A stretch of DNA of 64,000 nt from Coriobacteriia bacterium (GTDB lineage Bacteria; Actinomycetota; Coriobacteriia; Coriobacteriales; QAMH01). Position 1 is the first letter of the stretch. Each line of letters begins with the position of its first letter. The notes beneath the pieces are model-generated. The model was not told the DNA's origin and made no database searches. It saw only the letters and a list, made by a program, of their open reading frames with translations. This document shows, piece after piece, positions 34,306 to 46,127 of the stretch. The stretch lies in assembly GCA_003149935.1 (NCBI GenBank), contig QAMH01000009.1, positions 2,774-66,773 of the forward strand, written 5' to 3'. Position numbers and translations under genes: made by a program.

Positions 34306-34668
34306 CTATTCCCTCAGCTTTTCGTATGGTTTGTAGACCGGCGTGAAAATGACCTGACGTCGCTGTCCGTCCATCTTCTGCGCAAGCTCGGTGACTGGCC
34401 CGTAATACATCACGTTGGCCAGACAGTGATGCACGCAAATGGGCTCTCGGCCGCGGCTCGTGCGATCGATGCACAAGTCGCACAGATCCGTCGGCACCGG
34501 AATCTTGTTCCAGTTGTAGTGACCGGGCTCAATCTCCCATGGGCCATCATCAAGCACGCGGATGCCCCATTTGCCCACGGGGTAATCGTGCTCTTCCTTG
34601 CATGACACCTCGCATGATTGGCAACCCGTGCACAGTTCGTAATCGATAAGCAGTCCCGTTGCTTCCAT
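34306..34668 (-). CDS. 4Fe-4S dicluster ferredoxin-type subunit
   Basis: CTGCQSCEVSC plus CDLC...CVHHC cysteine motifs. It lies 2 nt downstream of the molybdoenzyme gene. Confidence 0.85.
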   Translation of the reverse strand: MEATGLLIDYELCTGCQSCEVSCKEEHDYPVGKWGIRVLDDGPWEIEPGHYNWNKIPVPTDLCDLCIDRTSRGREPICVHHCLANVMYYGPVTELAQKMDGQRRQVIFTPVYKPYEKLRE

Positions 34669-34670
34669 GG

Positions 34671-37052
34671 CTACCTCAACTCCCCGAATTTATCCTGGAT
34701 AAGCTGCATGTCCGTATCAAAGTTCTCATCCGTGCCTTCGATATTGCAGAGCATGCATTTGAACGGTGCGCCGAAGCCCAGCTTACCGACATGAAAATTC
34801 GGGATGAGATTGTTGATGTTGGAGCGGTATACACCGTAGTTATGCGGCGCATTACCGTCCTCCTCCGGGAACCACCAGCCGTGCTGCGCATGAATCACAT
34901 CGGGCTTCACGGACACCGTCAGCTTCGCCTTGAGATAGGCCTCGCCGAACTGGTTGTACACACGGCACCATTGCCCATCAACGATGCCAAGCTTCTTGGC
35001 CGTCTCGGGATTAATTTCCACGAGCGGATTGGGGTTCAACTCGCGAAGGCGCGGAATCTGGCGATGCTCCGAGTGGAAGAACGCGTAGGTGCGCGCACCA
35101 GTCGTGAGCACGAACGGATAGTCTTTCAGGAGCTCCGGCGTGCTGATGGGGCTGAAATCGGGTTCCTCGTAATACGGCAGCGGGTCGTCGCCGAACTGTT
35201 GGAAGCCCAGATTGTAGAGCTCGACGCGGCCGGTCGGCGTATTGAAGCCAGGTGCGCCGTCAGGACGCATCAGACCCTTCTCGTACTTGTAGTACTCGTT
35301 CTTGCTCTGGATGCACACCTGCTCGCGCAGTTCCTCGAACGTGCGGCTCTTGCCGAAACGCAGGAATTGCAACAGGTCATAGTAGCTATCAAACTCCTCG
35401 AAGCGCTTGGGGTTGAGACGCTTGCCGAGGATGTAGAGCAGCTCGAGATCACCGCGGCAATCGCCCTCGTCAACGCATTTGTTCTGCGTGCCGAAGTACA
35501 GGGGCGCCGATCCATATGCGGCAGCCACCGTGCTGTCGCGCTCGACGACCGTGGCCAGCGGCAAGACGATGTCGCAGACTGCCTGGATGGACGGCGTCAT
35601 GAAGCAGTCGAATCCGATGACGAACTCGAGTGAGCGGTTGATGGCCGCTTCCCAACGCTTGGGCTCAGCCGACGTGCAGGCAAGCAGGTTGTTGCCCGCA
35701 AAGGCGCCGATGCGCAGAGGATACGGATCGTCGGTCTCCATGCAGCGCAGCGTGAGGTCGGCGTGCGAGTTCTGGCTCATGCCGCAGTATGCCGGGTACT
35801 CCTTGAGACCTATCATCTTGGCGCGCAGCTCGTCGTCGTCAAGTGCCATGTAGGGCATGTACTCGTCGTCTTCCTCGGTGTCGGCGTCGAGCGCGACAGC
35901 GCCGCCTGTGGTTATCTGACCGCCGGGACGGTCGATGTTACCCGTGATGGCCATGAGGGCGATGATGCACTGCGCCTGCTGCATGCCGTTGGTCTTCTGG
36001 TCGGTCGCAAGACCCCACTGGATCGTGGCGGCCTCGGCGTTGGCGTACATGCGCGCCGCTCCGATGATGTCCTCGGCGGGAATGCCGCAGATCTCGGCAG
36101 CCTTCTCGGGCGGCATGGTGGCAACACGCTCGGCGAGCTGCTCGAAGCCGTAACACCACTTCTCAACGAACTCATGGTCGTAGAGACCCTCGCGGATTAT
36201 CACGTCGAGCATCGCCATGGCAATGGCCGTGTCGGTGCCGGGGCGCAATTGCAGGTGATAGGCCGCGCGCGTCGTGAGCCAGTTGACGCGCGAGTCGACC
36301 ATAATGAGCTTGCTGCCACGCTTCATGAGGTCGATAACCGCGTGACCAAACGCACCGTCCGGATTCGATACCGTGGGCACCTTGCCCCACAGCACGACTG
36401 CCTCGGGGATGTGGTACTCGGGATCCTCGTAGCGGCCAGGCAGACAACCCGCGTAGTCCATCTCAGGGTAGACCAAGCCAGCAGACATGGTGCCAGCAGC
36501 CAGACGTGGGAAATAACACGCGTACCCTGACTGCGTATAGCAGGCGTTGGGCGTTTGCCACACCATCGCAGTGTAGGTCATGCACGAGACGCCGCCCTCG
36601 CGCCCAGTGCCTCCGAAGTTCACGAAGCTTTCCTTGCCGTACTTGCTCGTGATCTCGGTGTAGCGCTTCTCGATGAGATCAAGCGCCTCATCCCAGGTAA
36701 TCTTCTCCCACGCGTCTGCCTGCCCGCGCTTGTCGCGATCACGCTTCATCGGATGCAGAATGCGGGAGTTGTTGTACTCGTAGTCCTTCAGCGCAATGCA
36801 GCGTACGCAGAGGCGCCCCTGGGTGACGGGATGGTTCTCGTCTCCTTCGACCTTGACGAGGCGCCCGTTCTCGTCGGTATAGAGCTTGAGACCACAGCCA
36901 ACCGGATGACAACCCGGTGGTGACCACACGCAGCTCCTCGTAACGGTTAGCCCCGTGTCCTCATCTGTGAACCTCCAGGGCTTACCCAGGTCGTTCACGT
37001 CAGAGAGACTGTCCAGCTTGACAGCTGGCGACGCGGTCTTTCTTAACGCCAT
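34671..37052 (-). CDS. Molybdopterin (bis-MGD) oxidoreductase catalytic subunit, DMSO-reductase superfamily, no Tat signal
   Basis: N-terminal Cys cluster (SCVWSPPGCHPVGCG...RLCVRC) and conserved molybdopterin-binding blocks through ~790 aa. ATG 37052 is preceded by GAGGAG. The N-terminus MALRKTASPAVK... lacks a twin-arginine motif. Confidence 0.9.
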   Translation of the reverse strand: MALRKTASPAVKLDSLSDVNDLGKPWRFTDEDTGLTVTRSCVWSPPGCHPVGCGLKLYTDENGRLVKVEGDENHPVTQGRLCVRCIALKDYEYNNSRILHPMKRDRDKRGQADAWEKITWDEALDLIEKRYTEITSKYGKESFVNFGGTGREGGVSCMTYTAMVWQTPNACYTQSGYACYFPRLAAGTMSAGLVYPEMDYAGCLPGRYEDPEYHIPEAVVLWGKVPTVSNPDGAFGHAVIDLMKRGSKLIMVDSRVNWLTTRAAYHLQLRPGTDTAIAMAMLDVIIREGLYDHEFVEKWCYGFEQLAERVATMPPEKAAEICGIPAEDIIGAARMYANAEAATIQWGLATDQKTNGMQQAQCIIALMAITGNIDRPGGQITTGGAVALDADTEEDDEYMPYMALDDDELRAKMIGLKEYPAYCGMSQNSHADLTLRCMETDDPYPLRIGAFAGNNLLACTSAEPKRWEAAINRSLEFVIGFDCFMTPSIQAVCDIVLPLATVVERDSTVAAAYGSAPLYFGTQNKCVDEGDCRGDLELLYILGKRLNPKRFEEFDSYYDLLQFLRFGKSRTFEELREQVCIQSKNEYYKYEKGLMRPDGAPGFNTPTGRVELYNLGFQQFGDDPLPYYEEPDFSPISTPELLKDYPFVLTTGARTYAFFHSEHRQIPRLRELNPNPLVEINPETAKKLGIVDGQWCRVYNQFGEAYLKAKLTVSVKPDVIHAQHGWWFPEEDGNAPHNYGVYRSNINNLIPNFHVGKLGFGAPFKCMLCNIEGTDENFDTDMQLIQDKFGELR

Positions 37053-37334: not shown

Positions 37335-38564
37335 ATGTTCCTGAGCATGGAGATACTGGCAGGCGACCTTGCACAATGGCATGCGTCTGCACATGTGCGC
37401 AATGCGGAAGGGAGCAGGCAGATTCGCTATGTGACACCTGCTGGCGCTCTGCCGCTTGATGATGCCACCGCCTTGTATGCCATGCGCGCAAACGAACTTG
37501 CAAGTTGCGCGTCCCGGGCTAAGGATGGCACCAACCTATTGTGTGTGGGCATTCCTGATGAAGAAGACCTGCTTGCATGCGAAGCGCTCAACGTCCTGAT
37601 ACTCGATGCGCCGGAAAGTGACTTTGATCGTGCCCTCAAAGACTGCGCCGAGGCCATCGCCTGGTATGCGGACGGCTTTACGAACCTTGCCGATGCTGTT
37701 GAGCGTGGCGACGAGGAGGCGATGCGCCGTGCGGCTGCGCTCTTGCGCTATTGTCTGCATGATGAACCGACGCAGGATGCCGATCCGAGCGCCTTGGCCG
37801 AGCAACTTAACTTACTGCTGCATCGCAACATAACCTCGTGGCAACTGCTCGAGGACACCATTGCCGATTGGGGTTGGGATCTGCTCGATGAGTACCTTTG
37901 CGTAACGAGCACAATTCCCGACGGGGCGTTTCGCTCAATGCTCGCAACCATTCAACCCGAGGCGACGGACAATACACCTGCGCAGGTGTATTTGCCTCAA
38001 GAGGAGTATCTAGTCGTCGTCGTGAATCTCACGCATGCCAAGATGGGGTATCGCGAGGCGGCATCCGAGATTGCCGTTCGCCTGCACGCACTCTCAAAAG
38101 AAGCGCGCGTTGGGGCGAGCAATCCATTCAGCGAGCTGCAGGATCTCTACTACTACGGCCAGCAGGCCAAGTCAGCCGTGCAGATGAGCATCGCGTTGAG
38201 CGCCGACGAGGACGTGTCGATCTTTCACGACCGCTTCCTTGATTTCGTGGCGCTGCATCTACTGGAGACGTGCCCACCGACGACGCTGTTTCCACCAGGG
38301 TACAGCCGCCTGCGTAATTACGAGCATGGCCAGGCGCGCACGAGTTCACTGCTGCACTTCCTCGATAGCTATATCGAGCATGACTTCCAGATGAAGCCCA
38401 CGGTTGCGGCAGAATATTGCTCGCGCACGACAGCATTCGACAAGTTACGCAAGATCAAGCAAATTACGGGCATGGATCTCGATGACCCCAATACGCGCGC
38501 AGCGCTGCGCCTGGCAACGCATGCGATACGGCTCTCGAAGATATCGCCTCGTCAGCCGGAGTAG
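37335..38564 (+). CDS. PucR/CdaR-family transcriptional regulator
   Basis: The C-terminal PucR-type HTH (LLHFLDSYIEHDFQMKPTVAAEYCSRTTAFDKLRKIKQITGMDLDDPNTRAALRLA). Divergent from the molybdoenzyme operon. Confidence 0.8.
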   Translation: MFLSMEILAGDLAQWHASAHVRNAEGSRQIRYVTPAGALPLDDATALYAMRANELASCASRAKDGTNLLCVGIPDEEDLLACEALNVLILDAPESDFDRALKDCAEAIAWYADGFTNLADAVERGDEEAMRRAAALLRYCLHDEPTQDADPSALAEQLNLLLHRNITSWQLLEDTIADWGWDLLDEYLCVTSTIPDGAFRSMLATIQPEATDNTPAQVYLPQEEYLVVVVNLTHAKMGYREAASEIAVRLHALSKEARVGASNPFSELQDLYYYGQQAKSAVQMSIALSADEDVSIFHDRFLDFVALHLLETCPPTTLFPPGYSRLRNYEHGQARTSSLLHFLDSYIEHDFQMKPTVAAEYCSRTTAFDKLRKIKQITGMDLDDPNTRAALRLATHAIRLSKISPRQPE

Positions 38565-38635: not shown

Positions 38636-40882
38636 CTATTTGCGTGCGTTGAACGCCACTGCCTCGAAGCGGACCGTTTCGGTAGTTGGAACGGTCTCGA
38701 CCACCGTACTCGAGGTGAAGCCGCGATCGGCTTCGACCGAATACAAGTCGACGACCTCGACATCCGCGAATCCCGCGGCCTCCATCTGGCTACGCAGCAG
38801 ATCTTCGGGGCGTGCCGCTTGGATGCTGTTGCCGATGTTGCGAGCAGCCTCGACTACTGCCTCGTCGCGCGTCACGTCCGACACGATCGTCTCGCAGATA
38901 AGCAAGCCACCGGGCTTGAGCACGCGATAAAACTCCTCGAGCGCCTTTTGCTGATCGTAGAGCAGTGTCATAACGTTGTTGATGTAGACGACGTCAACAG
39001 TCCCCTCTCCGATGCCAGCCTGCATGAGATCCTCGGGGTAGGCAACCTTGAAGCTCATGTTATTGGCCTTGAGGCCGTTCTTGCGCCACGCCTTCTCGGA
39101 ATCGACAATGGCCTCCTCGATGTAGCTCGGCGACCAGTCGACGCCGATGACGTGACCCGTACCGCCCACCTTCGCGCTGAACTTGAAACAGCCCTTGCCA
39201 CGCCTGCACGCCACATCGAGCACGGTCTTGCCCTTGAGCTGCGCAGCATCGGGCAGGGTCATCTTGCTCATGGACGCAAAGCCATACTCGAACTGCTTGC
39301 CGCCGTAGTACTCGGCGATCGTCTGGCCACCCGTCGCGGCAGTCTCGCCCGGCTGCATGGCCTCCTCGGCGTTGATGTCGAGCGTACGCACGCGCTCAGC
39401 GAGGCTACGGCGATGTTCATCAACCTGGAGCTCGTCATTGTGCGCGTAATACTCCTCATTGCCATAGTGAGCGATGAACTGAGTGGTCGTTTGGCGCGTC
39501 GTAATCTCGGCGATCGCAACGAGCATCTCGCGTCCGTTGCCCCAGGCCTCCTCGATGAACTTGATCGCATTGGTCATCTGCGTGTCCGCCGTCTTGACGA
39601 GCGGATCGATTGCGTTGACCTCATCGCGGTACGCATCGCTGATGGTCGCGAAGGCATCCTCGCCAGCCACCGTACCCGCAAGTCTGCACTGCTCCACGAG
39701 GCGTTTGAGCTTGGCGATGACGAGACCCTCCTTGCGCTCGAAGCTCGGCTTGGCAGTGCCGGAAGCAACCTTGCGCGCCAAGCTCTGCTCGCGCGCCGAG
39801 ATGACGACTCCAACGGTATCATCCACCGCTGCCCCTTCGAGCAATCTCGGCTTGGCATCGCGCAGGATGTCGCGCAGCTCGATGACGACCTCCTCCTGCT
39901 CAAGGGCATGCGCACACGACGTAGAGACTGCATCGAGCATGAGGCCTAGCAACGCCACGCGCTCATCAAACTCGGCACCACGCGCACGGTTAATGATATC
40001 GAGTCCCGCCTCACCGGCGAGAATGCTCATGATCTGGTAGTCAGAGCGGTACTTGTCGAAGAGGTTGTAGTACACCGAGAAGCTATCGGCGATGTCGTCG
40101 TCGCGCAGGAACTGCCCGATGAGATCGCGGCTGATCGGCTTGCTCATTTCCTCGTAGAGCGCAATGGCCTCGGCCAAATCCTCCCAACCGCGTGCGGTGA
40201 CGAAGCTCTTGCCACCACCGGGCTTGGACTGCACGAGGTAGAAGCAGTCGGGCTTGGCCTCGAGGAAGGTCGTTACCACCGGATGTATGCCCTTCTGCGT
40301 GGCGTAGCGCTTCCATGCGGCATACTCGGGCTCGACTTCGATTTCGCGTAAGCGGTCGAGCGTAACGATGTCGAATTCATGTACCGATTTGTTGTACTCG
40401 GGCGGGTTTCCCGCGCAGACGATGATCCAATCATGCGGAATGCGGTGACGGCCAAAGGTCTTGAACTGCAGGAACTGGAGCATCGAAGGATATAGCGTCT
40501 CGGAGACGCAGTTGATCTCGTCGAGGAACAGGATGCCCGCATGCAGGCCCGTCTCGCTCATGTAATCGTAGATGGACGAGACGATCTCGCTCATCGTGTA
40601 CTCGGAGGAGTCGTACTCGAAGCCCTCAAACTCGTTATGCACGATGCGTGGCAGGCCCAGTGCGCTTTGACGCGTGTGATGTGTCATGGAGTACGAAACG
40701 ATGCCGATCTGAAGTTCCTGGGCAATCTGCTCCATGATGGCGGTCTTGCCAATACCAGGTGCGCCAATGAGGAAGATTGGCCGTTGGCGCGCGGGGTTGA
40801 TCTTGTACATTCCCGCGTCATCCTTGAGAAGGTAGGCCTCGACGGAGTCCTTGATCTGTTCCTTTGCGTCGGCAATGTTCAT
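38636..40882 (-). CDS. MoxR/AAA_5-type ATPase fused to a C-terminal class I SAM-dependent methyltransferase
   Basis: Walker A is LIGAPGIGKT and Walker B is ILFLDEIN, with ...IVCAGNPPEYN.... A ~270-aa helical middle region follows. The C-terminal MTase (VLDVACRRGKGCFKF...GHVIGVDW...LKPGGLLICE) is paralogous to 44898-45656. Confidence 0.85.
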   Translation of the reverse strand: MNIADAKEQIKDSVEAYLLKDDAGMYKINPARQRPIFLIGAPGIGKTAIMEQIAQELQIGIVSYSMTHHTRQSALGLPRIVHNEFEGFEYDSSEYTMSEIVSSIYDYMSETGLHAGILFLDEINCVSETLYPSMLQFLQFKTFGRHRIPHDWIIVCAGNPPEYNKSVHEFDIVTLDRLREIEVEPEYAAWKRYATQKGIHPVVTTFLEAKPDCFYLVQSKPGGGKSFVTARGWEDLAEAIALYEEMSKPISRDLIGQFLRDDDIADSFSVYYNLFDKYRSDYQIMSILAGEAGLDIINRARGAEFDERVALLGLMLDAVSTSCAHALEQEEVVIELRDILRDAKPRLLEGAAVDDTVGVVISAREQSLARKVASGTAKPSFERKEGLVIAKLKRLVEQCRLAGTVAGEDAFATISDAYRDEVNAIDPLVKTADTQMTNAIKFIEEAWGNGREMLVAIAEITTRQTTTQFIAHYGNEEYYAHNDELQVDEHRRSLAERVRTLDINAEEAMQPGETAATGGQTIAEYYGGKQFEYGFASMSKMTLPDAAQLKGKTVLDVACRRGKGCFKFSAKVGGTGHVIGVDWSPSYIEEAIVDSEKAWRKNGLKANNMSFKVAYPEDLMQAGIGEGTVDVVYINNVMTLLYDQQKALEEFYRVLKPGGLLICETIVSDVTRDEAVVEAARNIGNSIQAARPEDLLRSQMEAAGFADVEVVDLYSVEADRGFTSSTVVETVPTTETVRFEAVAFNARK

Positions 40883-40912
40883 GGCCTTGATCCTTTCTTC
40901 GAGACCGTCTTA

Positions 40913-42595
40913 TCACGAATGGGCGCGCTCGGCGCTCTTGAATCGGTTGATGCCGTCCTCATCTATCACGACGCGCATGGTCCACGGCGGCACACTTGGC
41001 AGATGCGTCTCGCCGTTGTCGATGAAGACGAACGCCACGTCATACGGTGGCATCTTGTCGGGGTAATAGCCCAAACCGTCCGTAAAGTACAAAAGTCCCT
41101 GCAAGTTTTCGAGCTCTCCACGGTCTTGCAAGTCGGACACATAATCGAAGACCGGTCTGAAATCGGTGCCGCCGAAGCCCCGCACATAGAAGTTGGCGAG
41201 GTACTCCTTGAGCTGCTCAGGGTTCGTGATCTTGGTGTCAGATTGCACGCGCGCATCGCATTGGATGATGTGGATGTTCACCTTGGTACCGAATTCCTCG
41301 GAGTTCATGAGAATGTCAAAGGTGTGCTCGATGAAACGCTTGCAAAGATCGCCGCTCACAGACTCGGAGGTATCGATGGCGATGACGAAGTCACGCACGC
41401 TCTTCGTCTCCTTGTACTCAAGCGGCTCGACAAGTGGCATATTGCCGTAGAGTTCCAGCCCGTAGGTGTAGAAGATGTAATCGAACTCATCGTCATTGAT
41501 GCGCATGTCCTCGTGCACTGTCGCGAAACGACGCAGGAAATCGCTGTAGTCGTAGGTCTTGCGGTTGGCGATAGCCAAACTCGAGATGAGATCACGCGCC
41601 TCGTCGCCCCATTCCTTGGAGAAGGTCTCGAGGTTCATCTCGATCTGACGACTGATCTCCTCCCACTCCTTTTCCTCGTGAGCATTCTCGTCGTTGACCT
41701 GCTGTTCCGTGTCAGTCTCGCTGCTCGAACCCTCAAGCTCGTCATCACTCGTATCGAGCCCCGAGCCATCGACGTTAGAGCTCGCGTCCTCGGCATCGTC
41801 GTCTTCGGAAGCCTGCTCGTCATCACCATCATCCTGACCTTCTTGTTTCTGGTCGGAGGAGGGATCGGACTGGCTCATGTCCATATCGCTCGTCGACTGC
41901 AGGCTCTGGTCGCTCGTATCCGCCACCTCGTCGGCGTTGTCGTCCTCCTCGCCAATCTCCTCGATATCACCAGGCTTTTCTTCGCCCTCCTGGTCATTGA
42001 AGGCTGGCCACGACTCATGGTTGTCGCGTTCGAACAGTGCCTGCATCTCGACGATGTTGCTCTTCGAGTAGCTGAAGTAGCTCGTCCCCTCCGGATTCTT
42101 CATGATGCGGTCGAACAGGTGGTAGAGCTTGGCCGGCATGAGCGTGCCCACGGTCTGCCTTACCTGCGAGAGATATTGCTCGCGGTCCGCATCCTGCTCG
42201 CTTGTGAAGCGCGTCGCGCACATCTCCATGGCAACGCTTTCGACGATGACGTCGCAGGCTAGCGACCATGCCTCTCGGTTGCGTAGATAGTCGCGATTAT
42301 ACGGATGGCGAAAAATGCAGTGCAGGACCAGGTGCAGGTAATCACGCACCGCCTCGTCGAAGGACTCTTCAAAGCGCGCCAACACGCTGTAAGGTTCAAA
42401 ATAGATGTTCTTGCCGTCCGTCGAGAGTGGATAGCGGGCATGCGCGTGCACGGGAACGAGCTCCATGCGCCATAACGCAAGGTCGAGAAAGCGGAACTTG
42501 AGCATGAGCTGGACGCGACATTCCTCGATGATATCGGTGGCGAGACGCGCAGCCCGATTGAAGCGCTCGGTCTTCTCGTCGGTAATGTGCGCCAC
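40913..42595 (-). CDS. DUF2201-type protein: metallopeptidase-like N-domain, poly-acidic linker, vWA domain
   Basis: The N-domain contains YLHLVLHCIFRHPY. Residues ~201-312 are a D/E/S-rich linker. The C-terminal vWA has a MIDAS-like AIDTSESVSG and GGTDF. GTG 42595 is preceded by AGGGGA. Confidence 0.8.
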   Translation of the reverse strand: MAHITDEKTERFNRAARLATDIIEECRVQLMLKFRFLDLALWRMELVPVHAHARYPLSTDGKNIYFEPYSVLARFEESFDEAVRDYLHLVLHCIFRHPYNRDYLRNREAWSLACDVIVESVAMEMCATRFTSEQDADREQYLSQVRQTVGTLMPAKLYHLFDRIMKNPEGTSYFSYSKSNIVEMQALFERDNHESWPAFNDQEGEEKPGDIEEIGEEDDNADEVADTSDQSLQSTSDMDMSQSDPSSDQKQEGQDDGDDEQASEDDDAEDASSNVDGSGLDTSDDELEGSSSETDTEQQVNDENAHEEKEWEEISRQIEMNLETFSKEWGDEARDLISSLAIANRKTYDYSDFLRRFATVHEDMRINDDEFDYIFYTYGLELYGNMPLVEPLEYKETKSVRDFVIAIDTSESVSGDLCKRFIEHTFDILMNSEEFGTKVNIHIIQCDARVQSDTKITNPEQLKEYLANFYVRGFGGTDFRPVFDYVSDLQDRGELENLQGLLYFTDGLGYYPDKMPPYDVAFVFIDNGETHLPSVPPWTMRVVIDEDGINRFKSAERAHS

Positions 42596-42606
42596 GCCGC
42601 GTCCCC

Positions 42607-44895
42607 TTACAAGTCGAAGTCCACGGCGCTTCGTTGGAACAGCCGCCGTTTTATCTCAAGAAGGTATCCCGTCATTGCCGCATCTTGAAGCTTGCCGATG
42701 TGGTCAATGACATCAAGCAGATTATCCTTGTTCAGAATCTCCAATTCAAGAAGCTCGTCAATTGCCGTGCGATCGTCATGGCGCGTAATCGCCTCGCACA
42801 CTTCCTCAAGGTTTTTGGTAAGGACTTGCGTGAGCATAATCTTGTTGGTGCTGCTCATGAGGATGGGATCAGCCAGGCGCTCTATCGCGAGTTTGGCCTG
42901 CCCGTATACGTCGAAATCATCGTGCGCACCACTCGTCTTCTTGTCGAATTCGTGCATGTTGACAATCGCGCTGTCGTAGTGCTTGAAAATGCGCGCCAGG
43001 TCGACCGAGCTGCTCAGGTTAAACGCAAGCTGGATTTCGTGCGCGCTACGCGGGGCATCCGGAAAGTAGAAATCGAAGCTTGCATGGCCCTCATGGGGCT
43101 CGTCCAGATCGATGTGGAAGTGCTCCACAAAGCAATCGAGGCTCAATCCGCGCATGCCGACGTGCCGAATGCGATCGCTTAGAAACAGCTCACGCAGATG
43201 ACGAGCGCCGCCAAAGGCATAGGGATCGATGGCGCTCACATCCTCGGGAATCCTCACGCTTTCAACGCCATCGGCATAGACGACGACGTGCGAGCCACCC
43301 TCATCATGGCGCTCGATGAGCAGCCCGGGGACAGAATAGAAGCGCTCGTTGCCCTCCTCGACGCCGATGCTCGTGAGGGAAGGGGCCTCGTCACCGTTGT
43401 GCGCGCCATGCGTGATGAGCGCGGTGTTGCCAAGGCGCTTCAGCTTGCGGGGAATGAAGGCGCGCGAAAGCGAGGTGTCGAGGAAGGCCTCGTCGCCCAC
43501 CTCCTCGAGCGTCGAGGGAAAGTCGGCGATGGCAAGCTCGTGGCAATCGCGGAAGGCCGCATCCCCGATGCGCAGCAAGCCCTCGGGCAGCGTGACCTTC
43601 GTGACGTGCGCATGATGCGCGAAGGCATGCGGCTCGATTTCGATCGTGCCGGGCTGCACCGCGTACTCACGTGCCTTGTCATCGAGCAGATGCACGAAGT
43701 GCTTGCCCTCGGGCGTGTTGCGATACAGACCGCCCTCGCGGTCGATTTCGAGAATGCCACCTGCGGCGATGGAAAAGCCCGCATCATCCCCGGAAAAGCC
43801 GAGCTTGGTGTCGGCCGCGATGCTATTGCCCAGCGTCTCGAGCGTCGCGGGCACGCGCAAGGTCTCGATACCCGTCCCGGTGAACGCGTCGTCGCCGATG
43901 GACACGAGCCCTTCGTCGAGGGTGACCTGGGTGAGCTTGCGGCAGCGGAAGAAGGCGCGCTCGCCGATGGTGCGCAGGTCGCGCGGAGACGTGAAGCTCT
44001 CGAGACCCGAATAGGAGAACGCGTAGTCCTCGATCGTGGTGATGGTGTCGGGGAGCTCGACTTCGTAGAGCTCGGAGCGATTCGCAAAGGCCTTCTTCTC
44101 GATGACCTGACAACCATCGGGCACGACGTAGCGCTCGCAAGACAGCGCCAGCACTCGCAGGTGCGCACCCTCGTGTGCGAAGATGGCTTGCCCGTCGGTC
44201 GTTATGTAGGGGTTCTCGTCATCGATGCGGATGCTCTCGAGCTTGCCCTGGGCAAAGAGACCCGGCGCGAAGTCGTAGGTGGCAAAGCCGATGACGAGTG
44301 TGCGCAGCTGACCCTCGTCGAAGATGCTCGAAGTGACGCGCGCGAGCATGCCGGGCAAGACGAGCTCCGCGAGCTCACGACAACCGCGAACCCACGACGA
44401 GTCATAGGTCTCGACGTTGCGGGGTAAGACGAGGCGCTCGAGCTTCATGCACGAGCGAAACGCGCAGTTGCCGATCTTCTCGATCTGCGGCGAGCAGATG
44501 ATCTCGCGCACCGATTCGAGATACGAGCACGCATCGACGGCTAGCTCGGCCACCGGTTTGTCCTCGATGGTGGCGGGAATCTCGAGCGTGGTGGCATCGG
44601 TCTTGCAGCCGATGATGCGCACGTACTCGTCATGCACGGTCACGTACTCCCACAGCGTACCGTCATCGAGCATGAGCGCGCGCTCCTCCGAGCACGCAGC
44701 CGCATCCTCGCGAACGAGACGCTCGTGTTCGTCGTGGTTGCGCGCGAAGATCTCCTGCATGCGCTCGACTTCCTCGACGCTTCTCAATCCATCGCTCAGA
44801 GCCACGACAGCCACTTCCTTGATTCTCGAGAACTCCTCGTCGCCTTCGGCGTCAAGGCCACCAGTCATAACCGGCATTTCCCTACCCCAGCCCAT
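42607..44895 (-). CDS. Intracellular BspA-type leucine-rich repeat (LRR_5) protein with helical C-terminal domain
   Basis: Many repeats of the type I(G/E)..AF..C..L..V.LP..(L/V)..IG..AF. The N-terminus is acidic, with no signal peptide and no TM. The exact start is uncertain (ATGs at 44895, 44877, 44868). Confidence 0.85.
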   Translation of the reverse strand: MGWGREMPVMTGGLDAEGDEEFSRIKEVAVVALSDGLRSVEEVERMQEIFARNHDEHERLVREDAAACSEERALMLDDGTLWEYVTVHDEYVRIIGCKTDATTLEIPATIEDKPVAELAVDACSYLESVREIICSPQIEKIGNCAFRSCMKLERLVLPRNVETYDSSWVRGCRELAELVLPGMLARVTSSIFDEGQLRTLVIGFATYDFAPGLFAQGKLESIRIDDENPYITTDGQAIFAHEGAHLRVLALSCERYVVPDGCQVIEKKAFANRSELYEVELPDTITTIEDYAFSYSGLESFTSPRDLRTIGERAFFRCRKLTQVTLDEGLVSIGDDAFTGTGIETLRVPATLETLGNSIAADTKLGFSGDDAGFSIAAGGILEIDREGGLYRNTPEGKHFVHLLDDKAREYAVQPGTIEIEPHAFAHHAHVTKVTLPEGLLRIGDAAFRDCHELAIADFPSTLEEVGDEAFLDTSLSRAFIPRKLKRLGNTALITHGAHNGDEAPSLTSIGVEEGNERFYSVPGLLIERHDEGGSHVVVYADGVESVRIPEDVSAIDPYAFGGARHLRELFLSDRIRHVGMRGLSLDCFVEHFHIDLDEPHEGHASFDFYFPDAPRSAHEIQLAFNLSSSVDLARIFKHYDSAIVNMHEFDKKTSGAHDDFDVYGQAKLAIERLADPILMSSTNKIMLTQVLTKNLEEVCEAITRHDDRTAIDELLELEILNKDNLLDVIDHIGKLQDAAMTGYLLEIKRRLFQRSAVDFDL

Positions 44896-44897
44896 CT

Positions 44898-45656
44898 CTA
44901 GCGAAAATCGCTCATGTCCTTGAGCAGGAAGGCCTGGTAGTCGAAGCCACCGAGCTTCTCGACGTTCACGACGCAGCTCGTGAAGCGCGCCTCCTCGTCC
45001 GTCTCGACAATGGGCGCCTGCCCGTCTGCGGCCACGGCGTCGCAGGGCTGGATGGGACGCGCCTCGAGCGTCTCGTAGGTGGGCATGTCCATACCGGCGT
45101 TATGCAGCCAGAGCGCGAAGTTCTTGCGATTCGGGGCCGCCTGGACGACGTTTCCGATTGCGCGCGCCTCGGCGATGACCTTCTTGTCGCGCGGTGTCGT
45201 GGCGAGCACCGTCTGACACACGAGTTTGCCGCCCGGTACGAGCAGGCGGCCGATGAGCTTGATGACGTACGCCGGATCGTAGAAAAGGTTGAGGGCGCTA
45301 TTGACATAGACGTAATCGAGGCTGCCCTCCTCGATGCCGATCTGGTCGATCATCTCAGGATACGCGACGACGAATTCCATGTTGCTCTCGGTGAGCTTGT
45401 TCTTCTCGACTGCATGAGCCTCACCCTCGCGGGCGCGCTCGATGAAGGGCTTGCGCCAATCGATGCCGATGACGTGACCGGCCGGACCCACGTGATCAGA
45501 GAGCTTGTAGGCGCCCTTGCCGCGGCGGCATGCCAAGTCGAGGACGGTCTGATCGTTCAAGCCGCCGGGAACGAACATCTCGCAGCGACTATCGAGGCCA
45601 CCTGCCTCGGGAAGCTGCGCGTAATATGCCGCAAGATCGTCGAGCGTGAACGCCAT
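44898..45656 (-). CDS. Class I SAM-dependent methyltransferase
   Basis: VLDLACRRGKGAYKLSDHVGPAGHVIGIDW...LDYVYVNSALNLF...LVPGGKLVCQ. ATG 45656 is preceded by AGGAGG. Confidence 0.85.
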   Translation of the reverse strand: MAFTLDDLAAYYAQLPEAGGLDSRCEMFVPGGLNDQTVLDLACRRGKGAYKLSDHVGPAGHVIGIDWRKPFIERAREGEAHAVEKNKLTESNMEFVVAYPEMIDQIGIEEGSLDYVYVNSALNLFYDPAYVIKLIGRLLVPGGKLVCQTVLATTPRDKKVIAEARAIGNVVQAAPNRKNFALWLHNAGMDMPTYETLEARPIQPCDAVAADGQAPIVETDEEARFTSCVVNVEKLGGFDYQAFLLKDMSDFR

Positions 45657-45670
45657 AGATGCCTCCTAGA

Positions 45671-45694
45671 AGAAAAAGGCCCGCGACGCGGGCC
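45671..45694 (-). terminator. Hairpin plus U-tract downstream of tRNA-Thr
   Basis: GGCCCGC-gtc-GCGGGCC is followed on the minus strand by UUUUUCU. It lies 13 nt after the tRNA 3' end and 15 nt before the MTase ATG. Confidence 0.6.
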
Positions 45695-45706
45695 CCAGGT
45701 TTTTGA

Positions 45707-45782
45707 TGGTGCCGACGAAGAGACTCGAACTCTTGACCCCCGCATTACGAGTGCGGTGCTCTACCAGCTGAGCTACATCGGC
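45707..45782 (-). tRNA. tRNA-Thr (anticodon CGU), CCA encoded
   Basis: Manual cloverleaf of the minus strand: GCCGATG-TA-GCTC-AGCTGGTA-GAGC-A-CCGCA-CTCGTAA-TGCGG-GGGTC-AAGAG-TTCGAGT-CTCTT-CGTCGGC-ACCA. Confidence 0.95.
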
Positions 45783-45906
45783 CTACGCGTTTCGCGCAGT
45801 TGCACAGTCTATCAGACTCATGTGCGTTTGTGGGAACAAACCCGGCAATTGGTAACGAGGAGGTTTTATCAGAATCAAGTGGCTGTCTCGCTTGTAGCAG
45901 GCAAAT

Positions 45907-46127
45907 AATTTTCGATTATGTGTAACCGAGAAAAGCAACATGCAGAAAAAATGCGATTATGTGTAATCGGGAGCCAACAGCGTGTAGATAATTTTCGATT
46001 GTGTGGGAGCCGCTGCGTATTCATCCCACATAATCGAAAAAAACATGTAATTGAATCCGAACCATCACACATAATCGAAAAAAACGTGCAGCTGATCCCC
46101 CGTGATTACACGAAATCACAAAAAACG
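45907..46127. repeat. Array of six ~20-bp units (TTTTCGATTATGTGT; 3 forward plus 3 reverse) with 41-42 bp spacing, forming a nested palindrome
   Basis: Forward units are at 45907, 45946 and 45990. Reverse units are at 46024, 46065 and 46106. The inner pair 45992-46008 / 46024-46040 matches 16/17 as a reverse complement. Confidence 0.75.

Follow-up and report, generated by a model that had tools for sequence, protein, structure and literature searches.

A conserved gene triad of LRR protein, vWA protein and MoxR-clade ATPase in Coriobacteriia and Clostridia, with lineage-specific methyltransferase-like domains

What kind of system is encoded by the compact minus-strand operon at positions 38,636 to 45,656 of a 64,000-nt stretch of the genome of a Coriobacteriia bacterium (contig QAMH01000009.1 of assembly GCA_003149935.1, positions 2,774 to 66,773; this whole stretch is hereafter called the window)? 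An earlier note, made from the letters of the window, described four closely packed genes and proposed that they form a candidate NTPase-driven machine of defence or modification. The coordinates of the open reading frames (ORFs) and the Pfam matches confirmed the four genes, their spacing and their domains: a stand-alone class I S-adenosylmethionine (SAM) methyltransferase-like protein (MT1; 44898-45656, 252 aa), a leucine-rich repeat (LRR) protein (42607-44895, 762 aa), a protein with a domain of the von Willebrand factor A type (vWA; 40913-42595, 560 aa, GTG start) and a MoxR-clade AAA+ ATPase that carries a second methyltransferase-like domain (MT2) at its C-terminus (38636-40882, 748 aa), all on the minus strand and separated by gaps of 2, 11 and 30 nt. 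The motifs quoted in the note, YLHLVLHCIFRHP, DTSES, GAPGIGKT and ILFLDEIN, were all found in the operon proteins, and its claim that the LRR protein lacks a signal peptide and a transmembrane segment was borne out, as none of the four proteins has a hydrophobic segment of transmembrane grade (maximum KD19 ≤1.56) or a signal-like N-terminus. A plausible Shine-Dalgarno sequence had been claimed for each internal start; it is present before the vWA gene (AAGGGGA) and the ATPase gene (AAAGGA), but the LRR gene has only a weak GAG. The Shine-Dalgarno sequence of the MT1 gene is strong (AGGAGG).

The comparison with other genomes changes the definition of the unit. Species-representative genomes were scanned with an alignment of the vWA protein, which yielded 80 loci, and the window proteins were mapped onto them; all 80 loci belong to Eggerthellaceae or other Coriobacteriia, except for a few evidently mis-binned contigs. 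The LRR gene was found immediately upstream of the vWA gene in 63 of the 63 informative loci, with the LRR tail adjoining the vWA gene in 73 of 74, and the ATPase gene lies downstream of the vWA gene in 68 of 68. The methyltransferase domain is fused to the ATPase in 65 of 68 loci, and the stand-alone MT1 gene is present in only 5 of 60, all of them relatives of the window with at least 90% identity; in a 75% relative (L015), the gene for tRNA-Thr is followed directly by the LRR gene, without MT1. A tblastn search against phages returned unverified faecal scaffolds encoding a short LRR_5 protein, a DUF2201_N plus DUF2201 protein and an ATPase of ~505 aa, with no methyltransferase, and homologues of this shorter ATPase occur in Lachnospiraceae ([Clostridium] hylemonae, Extibacter, Sporofaciens and Bariatricus). 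In further Clostridia contexts the same three genes overlap, their flanks are unrelated and a methyltransferase is again lacking; other family members were found in metagenome-assembled genomes (MAGs) of Clostridiales and in Ca. Ventricola. In addition, a scan of 1.84 billion representatives gave 492 ATPase clusters (50% identity) at E ≤ 1e-30, and among the best 150 of these nearly all are ~500 aa long, the methyltransferase fusion being essentially one cluster. It is common in the gut of humans and animals, with thousands of metagenomic members in single 90% clusters of the triad.

Taken together, the order of LRR, vWA and ATPase genes, which recurs in Eggerthellaceae loci and in Clostridia, is far beyond chance. 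As the triad occurs without a methyltransferase across Clostridia and its features are shared between phyla, the functional unit is the triad itself, LRR_5, DUF2201 (zincin-like plus vWA with its metal ion-dependent adhesion site, MIDAS) and a MoxR-clade ATPase of ~500 aa, and the four-gene unit of the earlier note has to be reduced to three. The methyltransferase domains are lineage-specific accessories: the fusion to the ATPase is specific to Coriobacteriia, and MT1 was added in the sub-lineage of the window. The wider proposal of an uncharacterised NTPase-driven system is supported, and this system is conserved.

Two observations on individual loci may be added. Second, paralogous LRR-vWA-ATPase triads were found at three loci (L014:14172-18862, L016:4100-8732 and L068:7913-13287) in genomes that also have the methyltransferase-fused one, and the ATPases of the second triads (532 and 562 aa) have no methyltransferase. 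Three contigs (L058, L067 and L071), assigned to Agathobacter rectalis, Oscillibacter sp. and Ruthenibacterium lactatiformans, carry a triad of the Coriobacteriia type, fused to a methyltransferase and with ~48% vWA identity, together with the conserved oxidoreductase described below, and they probably represent binning contamination.

The note had allowed that the LRR gene might be an incidental neighbour. It is instead an obligatory partner, since its position is conserved and so is, across two phyla, a family-specific helical C-terminal tail (aa 621-762, ending in F-D-L; 42607..43035, minus strand), which the alignment shows to be common to the window protein and the short Lachnospiraceae LRR partners. 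The N-terminal region and the BspA/LRR_5 repeat array make up aa 1-620 (43036..44895, minus strand; Pfam LRR_5, 8e-56), and the protein, which has neither a transmembrane segment nor a signal peptide, is predicted to be cytoplasmic. Several lineages have a duplicated LRR component: in L022, L043, L053, L060 and L070, two LRR-partner genes stand in tandem 5' of the vWA gene. Sliding-window identity and segment-wise synonymous divergence (dS) placed a recombination breakpoint inside the LRR gene of the window near 43,350 (43300..43450): MT1 and the LRR array are 96-99% identical to those of L009 and L010 and ~80% to those of L005, while the opposite pattern is seen in the LRR tail, the vWA gene, the ATPase-MT2 fusion and the adjacent PucR-type regulator gene, which are 93-98% identical to L005. 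The cassette of MT1 and LRR array thus has a history different from that of the remainder of the operon. An arms-race diversification of the LRR protein was considered and ruled out, as the uneven identity is that of a recombination mosaic with jumps in dS; the ratio of nonsynonymous to synonymous divergence (dN/dS) is 0.01-0.26 over all operon genes and 0.09-0.13 in the LRR array, and values this low despite the jumps in dS between segments indicate purifying selection and not an arms race.

The vWA partner matches Pfam DUF2201 (2.2e-12, 47.6 bits), and its N-domain, when scanned alone, matches DUF2201_N (28.7 bits against a cutoff of 23.2). This N-domain (41996..42595, minus strand) had been described as metallopeptidase-like. 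A zincin-like domain is indeed present, and the three histidines of H88-x3-H92-C93-x3-H97 are kept, but the catalytic Glu is lost, with Leu in its place: at the HExxH position the window protein reads HLVLHC, the Lachnospiraceae proteins read H[LM]xLHC, and the canonical DUF2201 protein of Simplicispira reads HEVLHC (HEVLHCGNGH), the change of Glu to Leu or Met holding throughout the vWA partners of the triad family. A poly-acidic linker follows (aa 201-305, 40% D/E; 41681..41995, minus strand), predicted to be disordered from its composition and from an AlphaFold2 confidence (pLDDT) of ~30; the AlphaFold2 model of the whole protein consists of a confident helical N-domain, this disordered acidic stretch (202-301) and a canonical vWA domain. 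The C-terminal part (40913..41680, minus strand), supported by invariant columns, the AlphaFold2 model and Foldseek, comprises a hairpin and the vWA domain, which has a complete MIDAS in invariant columns (D408-T-S-E-S412, T477 and D506) and which Foldseek matched to canonical vWA domains, including the MIDAS domain of MDN1. The hairpin (aa ~359-400), which directly precedes the vWA domain, is highly conserved with low pLDDT; it might, speculatively, be a candidate counterpart of the 'finger' with which NorD would enter the hexamer pore. The vWA domain forms the C-terminus of the protein, so that the sole extra domain is the N-terminal zincin-like one without its catalytic Glu. The full-length two-domain fold matched many phage proteins in Foldseek, with E down to ~1e-13. 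A PDB sequence search with this protein returned only low-complexity noise from the acidic linker, and in a Foldseek search of the model against the PDB the vWA domain dominated the matches and the fold of the N-domain was not placed. The dN/dS of the vWA partner is 0.03-0.07. One 662-aa homologue with internally duplicated segments (P0067), probably an assembly artefact, was left out of the alignments.

The ATPase is the most strongly constrained member of the operon (dN/dS 0.01-0.04), and its core is ~70% identical across phyla in the alignment. Its MoxR-clade AAA+ module (aa 1-300; 39983..40882, minus strand) has the Walker A motif GAPGIGKT and the Walker B motif ILFLDEIN, and the corresponding pair GxPGIGKT and ILF[LI]DEIN was found in 238 of 240 ATPase homologues. 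Pfam AAA_5 was matched at residues 36-176 (8.4e-8), and a weak match of the operon to Pfam bpMoxR (23.7 bits) stayed under the cutoff of 27. The best PDB profile match was Midasin (6e-9); a plain sequence search with the ATPase found no close solved relative. The best Foldseek matches of its AlphaFold2 model (pLDDT 79) were NorQ hexamers, NorQ-NorD complexes, CbbQ and dynein modules. The module is followed by an all-helical middle domain (aa 301-530; 39293..39982, minus strand) that was modelled with a pLDDT of 86-97 and is conserved with the ~500-aa ATPases of Clostridia.

Both methyltransferase-like domains match Pfam Methyltransf_31, MT1 with 1.1e-16 and MT2 (aa 531-748; 38636..39292, minus strand) at residues 550-681, and their paralogy, as claimed in the note, was upheld by 38% identity (E = 1e-45). 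MT1 shares 34-48% identity with each of the 120 MT2 domains, whereas MT2 orthologues share 52-97% among themselves; a recent duplication of MT2 as the source of MT1 was therefore rejected, and MT1 is an older or imported paralogue. Its dN/dS is 0.11-0.23. The best relatives of MT1 and MT2, by sequence as well as by structure, are arsenite and phosphoethanolamine methyltransferases, and in the PDB the best matches are ArsM structures (8xt7, 2.2e-16; 4fr0, 5evj and 5eg5, ~1e-13). The likeness to ArsM extends across the SAM-binding fold, including the acidic residue at the end of beta-2. In contrast to ArsM, the GxGxG loop is replaced by [AC]CRRG[KR]G (ACRRGKG in MT2 of the window), which is at least 95% conserved in the 120 fusions and is shared by MT1, a member of the same CRRGKG subfamily. 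Two ArsM cysteine positions are also changed in MT2 (SNCV to NNVM and GECL to GNSI), with the Asn and Ser likewise conserved across the 120 fusions, and MT1 has Ser and Val at the same positions. We take the As(III)-binding cysteines of CmArsM to be Cys72, Cys174 and Cys224, and the equivalent of Cys72 is presumably the position replaced by Gly (YYGCG to YYGGK). With the NCBIfam ArsM model PRK11873, whose cutoff is 263 bits, the two domains score 55.5 and 73.4 bits. With at least two substrate cysteines replaced and the scores far under the cutoff, an ArsM function was ruled out. The note had named, as a finding that would speak against it, a mapping of the methyltransferases to a small-molecule family with conserved substrate residues; the nearest such family is ArsM, of whose substrate cysteines at least two are gone. 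Judged by its sequence, MT2 is under constraint and is not an arsenite methyltransferase.

Among described systems, the triad is most readily compared with NorQ/NorD and its relatives (CbbQ/CbbO and CoxD/CoxE). Both have a MoxR-clade AAA+ ATPase with intact Walker motifs, encoded beside a vWA protein that has a flexible linker and a complete MIDAS, NorQ and the NorQ-NorD complexes are the top fold matches, and a metalloenzyme gene adjoins most Eggerthellaceae triads. The triad differs in its third, obligatory LRR_5 partner, in the inactivated zincin-like N-domain (DUF2201_N) of its vWA protein and in the ~230-aa helical extension of its ATPase, to which a methyltransferase-like domain is fused in Coriobacteriia; moreover, its sequence likeness to NorQ is 14-16%, and the Clostridia triads have no adjacent metalloenzyme. 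With Midasin/Rea1, the best PDB profile match, it shares the logic of an AAA_5 motor and a MIDAS that grips an acidic residue of a partner, but Midasin, a eukaryotic protein of ribosome biogenesis, carries six AAA modules on one giant chain, whereas in the triad these functions lie on separate small proteins. The canonical DUF2201 proteins of phages, plasmids and proteobacteria have the same two-domain architecture, with both DUF2201_N and DUF2201 matched, but they keep HExxH where the triad family has H[LM]xLHC, and the triad family adds an LRR partner and a conserved chromosomal context. The reading that we favour, tentatively and with a confidence that falls slightly short of even, is that the operon encodes a cytoplasmic remodelling machine like NorQ/NorD, made up of a MoxR-type AAA+ ATPase, a vWA protein and a dedicated LRR partner, to which a methyltransferase-like domain is tethered in Coriobacteriia.

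The NorQD complex (PMC13036017, PMC9976466) served as the template for a possible mechanism of such a machine. By analogy, a hexamer of the ATPase would grip the vWA protein, the hairpin (aa ~359-400) being a possible point of contact, and ATP hydrolysis would pull or twist the linker of the vWA protein. A client protein would be held by the MIDAS site, the N-domain with its His site and the LRR partner, and the tethered methyltransferase domain might methylate the client or a ligand bound to it. The LRR protein may be the client adaptor, or possibly the client itself, and the His site of the dead zincin may hold a metal.

What, then, might the client be? For no more than a few enzymes, MoxR/vWA pairs are known as chaperones of metal insertion or remodelling, and these chaperones classically serve metalloenzymes such as molybdoenzymes. 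In the window, a gene for a cytoplasmic acetylene-hydratase-like molybdopterin oxidoreductase lies at 34671..37052 (minus strand; probable start MALRKT), with no twin-arginine motif seen in its read sequence. It is accompanied by a gene for an FKBP isomerase and one for a small ferredoxin-like partner of 120 aa (34306..34668, minus strand; Pfam Fer4_11), homologues of which also follow the oxidoreductase in other loci. Most Eggerthellaceae loci have an oxidoreductase gene, a ~120-aa partner gene and two conserved small ORFs (89 and ~111 aa) on the same strand 5' of the triad; this block is seen, for example, in Gordonibacter (L062:3999-7572) and ~47 other loci, and its ~120-aa partner lacks the ferredoxin cysteines. 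The conserved upstream oxidoreductase is ~88% identical across genera, has lost the N-terminal Fe-S cysteines, and has acetylene hydratase as its closest solved relative (6e-69). The enzyme of the window was considered as its orthologue and rejected, with 46% identity against ~88% among the orthologues; compared with the conserved upstream type, the Fe-S cysteines are kept only in the window copy.

The distribution of these genes is strongly skewed towards the triad. Across 1.26 Mb of sampled Eggerthellaceae loci, in which oxidoreductase genes were detected at E ≤ 1e-3, 45 of 45 lie 1.0-3.4 kb from a triad gene, and the flank that is farther than 2.5 kb from a triad, 461 kb in total, contains only two of them, at 3.0 and 3.4 kb, both in the same conserved block. 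The adjacencies involve four paralogue types, and the arrangements number at least five: the conserved paralogue on the upstream side of the triad, as in most cases, or downstream of it (L038), the window type past a regulator gene, a third paralogue downstream (L013), and a second, methyltransferase-less triad beside, and divergent from, a fourth paralogue (L014 and L016). By a rough estimate, the chance of each independent arrangement is ~3%, and at so low a background the four additional independent adjacencies are unlikely to be a coincidence. The operon looks more like an enzyme-maturation device, possibly for the neighbouring molybdenum enzymes, than like a phage defence system. That the client in Eggerthellaceae is the adjacent acetylene-hydratase-like Mo/W enzyme, in the window that of 34671-37052, is a plausible reading of the neighbourhood statistics, which we nevertheless rate as less likely than not. 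The fuller proposal, that the LRR_5, DUF2201 (vWA) and MoxR proteins are an unrecognised ternary class of AAA+ remodellers, devoted in Eggerthellaceae to maturing or activating the cytoplasmic acetylene-hydratase-like Mo/W enzymes by means of a metallochaperone domain at the His site and a tethered protein methyltransferase, would seem rather unlikely as a whole.

Several points weigh against a remodelling machine of the NorQ/NorD kind and against its link with the oxidoreductases. The fold likeness of the ATPase to NorQ is modest (TM-score 0.4-0.47 at the identity given above), and, the SAM loop being non-canonical (ACRRG for GxGxG), the catalytic competence of the methyltransferase is only putative. 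Searches of the literature on DUF2201, on MoxR with vWA, LRR and methyltransferase, and on Eggerthellaceae with acetylene hydratase found nothing on the triad and no experiment on any member. Most of the adjacencies derive from one ancestral block, so that the independent events are few (about five), and eight Eggerthellaceae loci have no oxidoreductase within 10 kb, among them L009, L010, L012 and L015, which are closely related to the window. In Gordonibacter, a hairpin that may be a terminator lies between the oxidoreductase block and the LRR gene, and in the window the two units have a regulator gene between them. The Clostridia triads have neither an oxidoreductase neighbour nor a methyltransferase, which implies that the universal client, if there is any, is something else or that clients vary by lineage. 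Such points lead to a rival in which the triad is a housekeeping remodelling machine whose universal client is unrelated to molybdoenzymes, the oxidoreductase adjacency reflects inherited synteny or co-regulation, and the methyltransferase is an accessory of one lineage. The triad is self-contained between unrelated flanks in eight Clostridia contexts, its ATPase is extremely conserved and, among the best matches of the 492 clusters at 50% identity, nearly always ~500 aa long, and both the loci without any oxidoreductase and the possible terminator agree with this view. However, synteny alone is a poor explanation for four oxidoreductase paralogues in at least five arrangements with almost none in the 461 kb of farther flank, and we consider a pure housekeeping role fairly improbable.

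The role in defence that the earlier note had entertained, with the LRR protein as sensor, the ATPase and vWA protein as threshold and the methyltransferases as effector or self-marking enzymes of an anti-phage or conflict system, is a good deal less probable still. Its model would be the vWA-MoxR ternary systems (PMC7159879, PMC8195603), which likewise have a MoxR and vWA core and a third protein of repeat or recognition type encoded 5'. The third component of the triad is, however, an LRR_5 protein with a novel helical tail and not VMAP, iSTAND/iSTAND2, TERNS3 or a beta-propeller; the vWA domain has no effector on its C-terminal side, and no effector-associated/Death-like adaptor domain (EAD) was detected; and whereas the described systems belong to multicellular bacteria, the triad resides in unicellular gut anaerobes, in a conserved block beside metabolic genes. 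None of these features of the described systems applies to the triad, and the same two papers describe neither an LRR third component nor a methyltransferase, as the note had supposed. A PADLOC search, which the note had suggested, matched no known defence system: mad2 of MADS was matched only over the generic methyltransferase core (profile 285-420 of 492, 41-47 bits), the other mad genes gave nothing significant beyond a 13.9-bit P-loop match, and a P-loop was weakly matched to IetA. A tblastn search of plasmids gave only two weak, unrelated vWA matches. The exchange of the MT1 and LRR-array cassette by recombination, the tandem LRR duplications, the downstream GmrSD-like genes of one lineage and the frequency of the DUF2201 architecture in phages may, like the weak PADLOC matches, be cited for a defence role, but carriage by a plasmid or a true phage, an att repeat or diversifying selection was not found, and all genes are under purifying selection, the LRR array at just 0.09-0.13. 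Phage carriage was ruled out, as the 'phage' records are unverified faecal scaffolds with genes for an M18 peptidase, DegV, a Mur ligase and an aminotransferase, which are bacterial and Lachnospiraceae-like. An island integrated at the tRNA gene was ruled out as well, for the 3' end of tRNA-Thr has no second copy and no flanking direct repeats in the window, and relatives carry the triad straight after the same tRNA without MT1. The full-length fold matches to phage proteins and the occurrence of canonical DUF2201 in phages and on a conjugative plasmid could also mean that the operon is what is left of a phage-type DUF2201/MoxR module, domesticated or selfish and without function for the host; a chromosomal triad conserved across genera and phyla, with very low dN/dS and no consistent mobile-element genes at its flanks, makes this highly improbable. 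A metabolic module for methylation of small molecules, either a metalloid or a substrate or product (a catechol, for example) of the neighbouring molybdoenzyme, with the ATPase, vWA and LRR proteins as scaffold or regulator, would suit the arsenite and phosphoethanolamine methyltransferases that are the best relatives of MT1 and MT2, the oxidoreductase neighbours and the ArsP-type permease genes beside two Lachnospiraceae triads. Yet two As(III)-binding cysteines are replaced and the score reaches 73 against 263 bits, the covalent link to an AAA+ remodeller suggests that the target is a macromolecule, and the absence of the methyltransferase from most of the family shows that it is not the core function; this reading, too, is distinctly unlikely.

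Three sets of loci deserve mention apart from this comparison. L085 to L087 (GenBank MT835935, MT836813 and MT837836), deposited as 'UNVERIFIED: Bacteriophage sp.', contain only bacterial housekeeping genes and the triad, and look like chromosomal fragments of Lachnospiraceae. In Adlercreutzia sp. ZJ176 (L003:11764-13998), two GmrSD_N genes (type IV restriction-like) lie ~1.2 kb downstream of the triad, the sole defence-type neighbour in any locus. The permease genes lie in two unrelated Lachnospiraceae loci (ArsP_2, L090:10487-11326; ArsP_1, L095:3039-3524), and their adjacency, curious in view of the ArsM ancestry of the Coriobacteriia domain, may be a coincidence.

With regard to its setting, the window has an unremarkable GC content, and the relatives nearest to it are MAGs of uncultured Coriobacteriia from the human gut (98% identity; L005). 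Upstream of the operon and on the same strand lie the genes for SmpB, tmRNA, PepF, MurI, RNase PH and tRNA-Thr(CGT), the last of which (45707..45782, minus strand; ARAGORN and Rfam) is directly upstream and is also found 5' of the operon in L005, L008, L009, L012 and L015. A terminator-like hairpin with a 9-bp stem and a T-run (45676..45696, minus strand) is located between the tRNA gene and the ribosome-binding site of MT1. As only ~20 nt separate the end of this hairpin from the AGGAGG-ATG of MT1 (region 45657-45706), there is no space for a separate promoter, and the operon may be expressed by read-through from the promoter of the tRNA gene. A ~41-nt unit with the core CGATTATGTGTAA / CACATAATCGAAAAA is repeated in tandem about five times between the RNase PH region and the tRNA-Thr gene (45898-46103), and this array is the least conserved stretch in the comparison with the 98% relative L005 (66-70% identity). 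On the other side of the operon, a PucR-type regulator (37335..38564, plus strand; Pfam HTH_30 and GGDEF_2) converges on the operon and diverges from the oxidoreductase operon.

Two features set the triad apart from the MoxR systems described so far: its LRR partner, which is intracellular and obligatory, and the methyltransferase-like domain that is covalently tethered to it in Coriobacteriia. The family of acetylene-hydratase-like Mo/W enzymes includes the gut catechol dehydroxylases. If the link with the oxidoreductases is functional, the triad would be the maturation machinery that has so far been missing for a class of enzymes behind the metabolism of dietary and drug catechols by gut bacteria, and mutants of the ATPase, the MIDAS and the SAM loop would offer a concrete handle for its study; if it is not, the triad is still a well-defined and widespread machine among the conserved hypothetical proteins of these bacteria.

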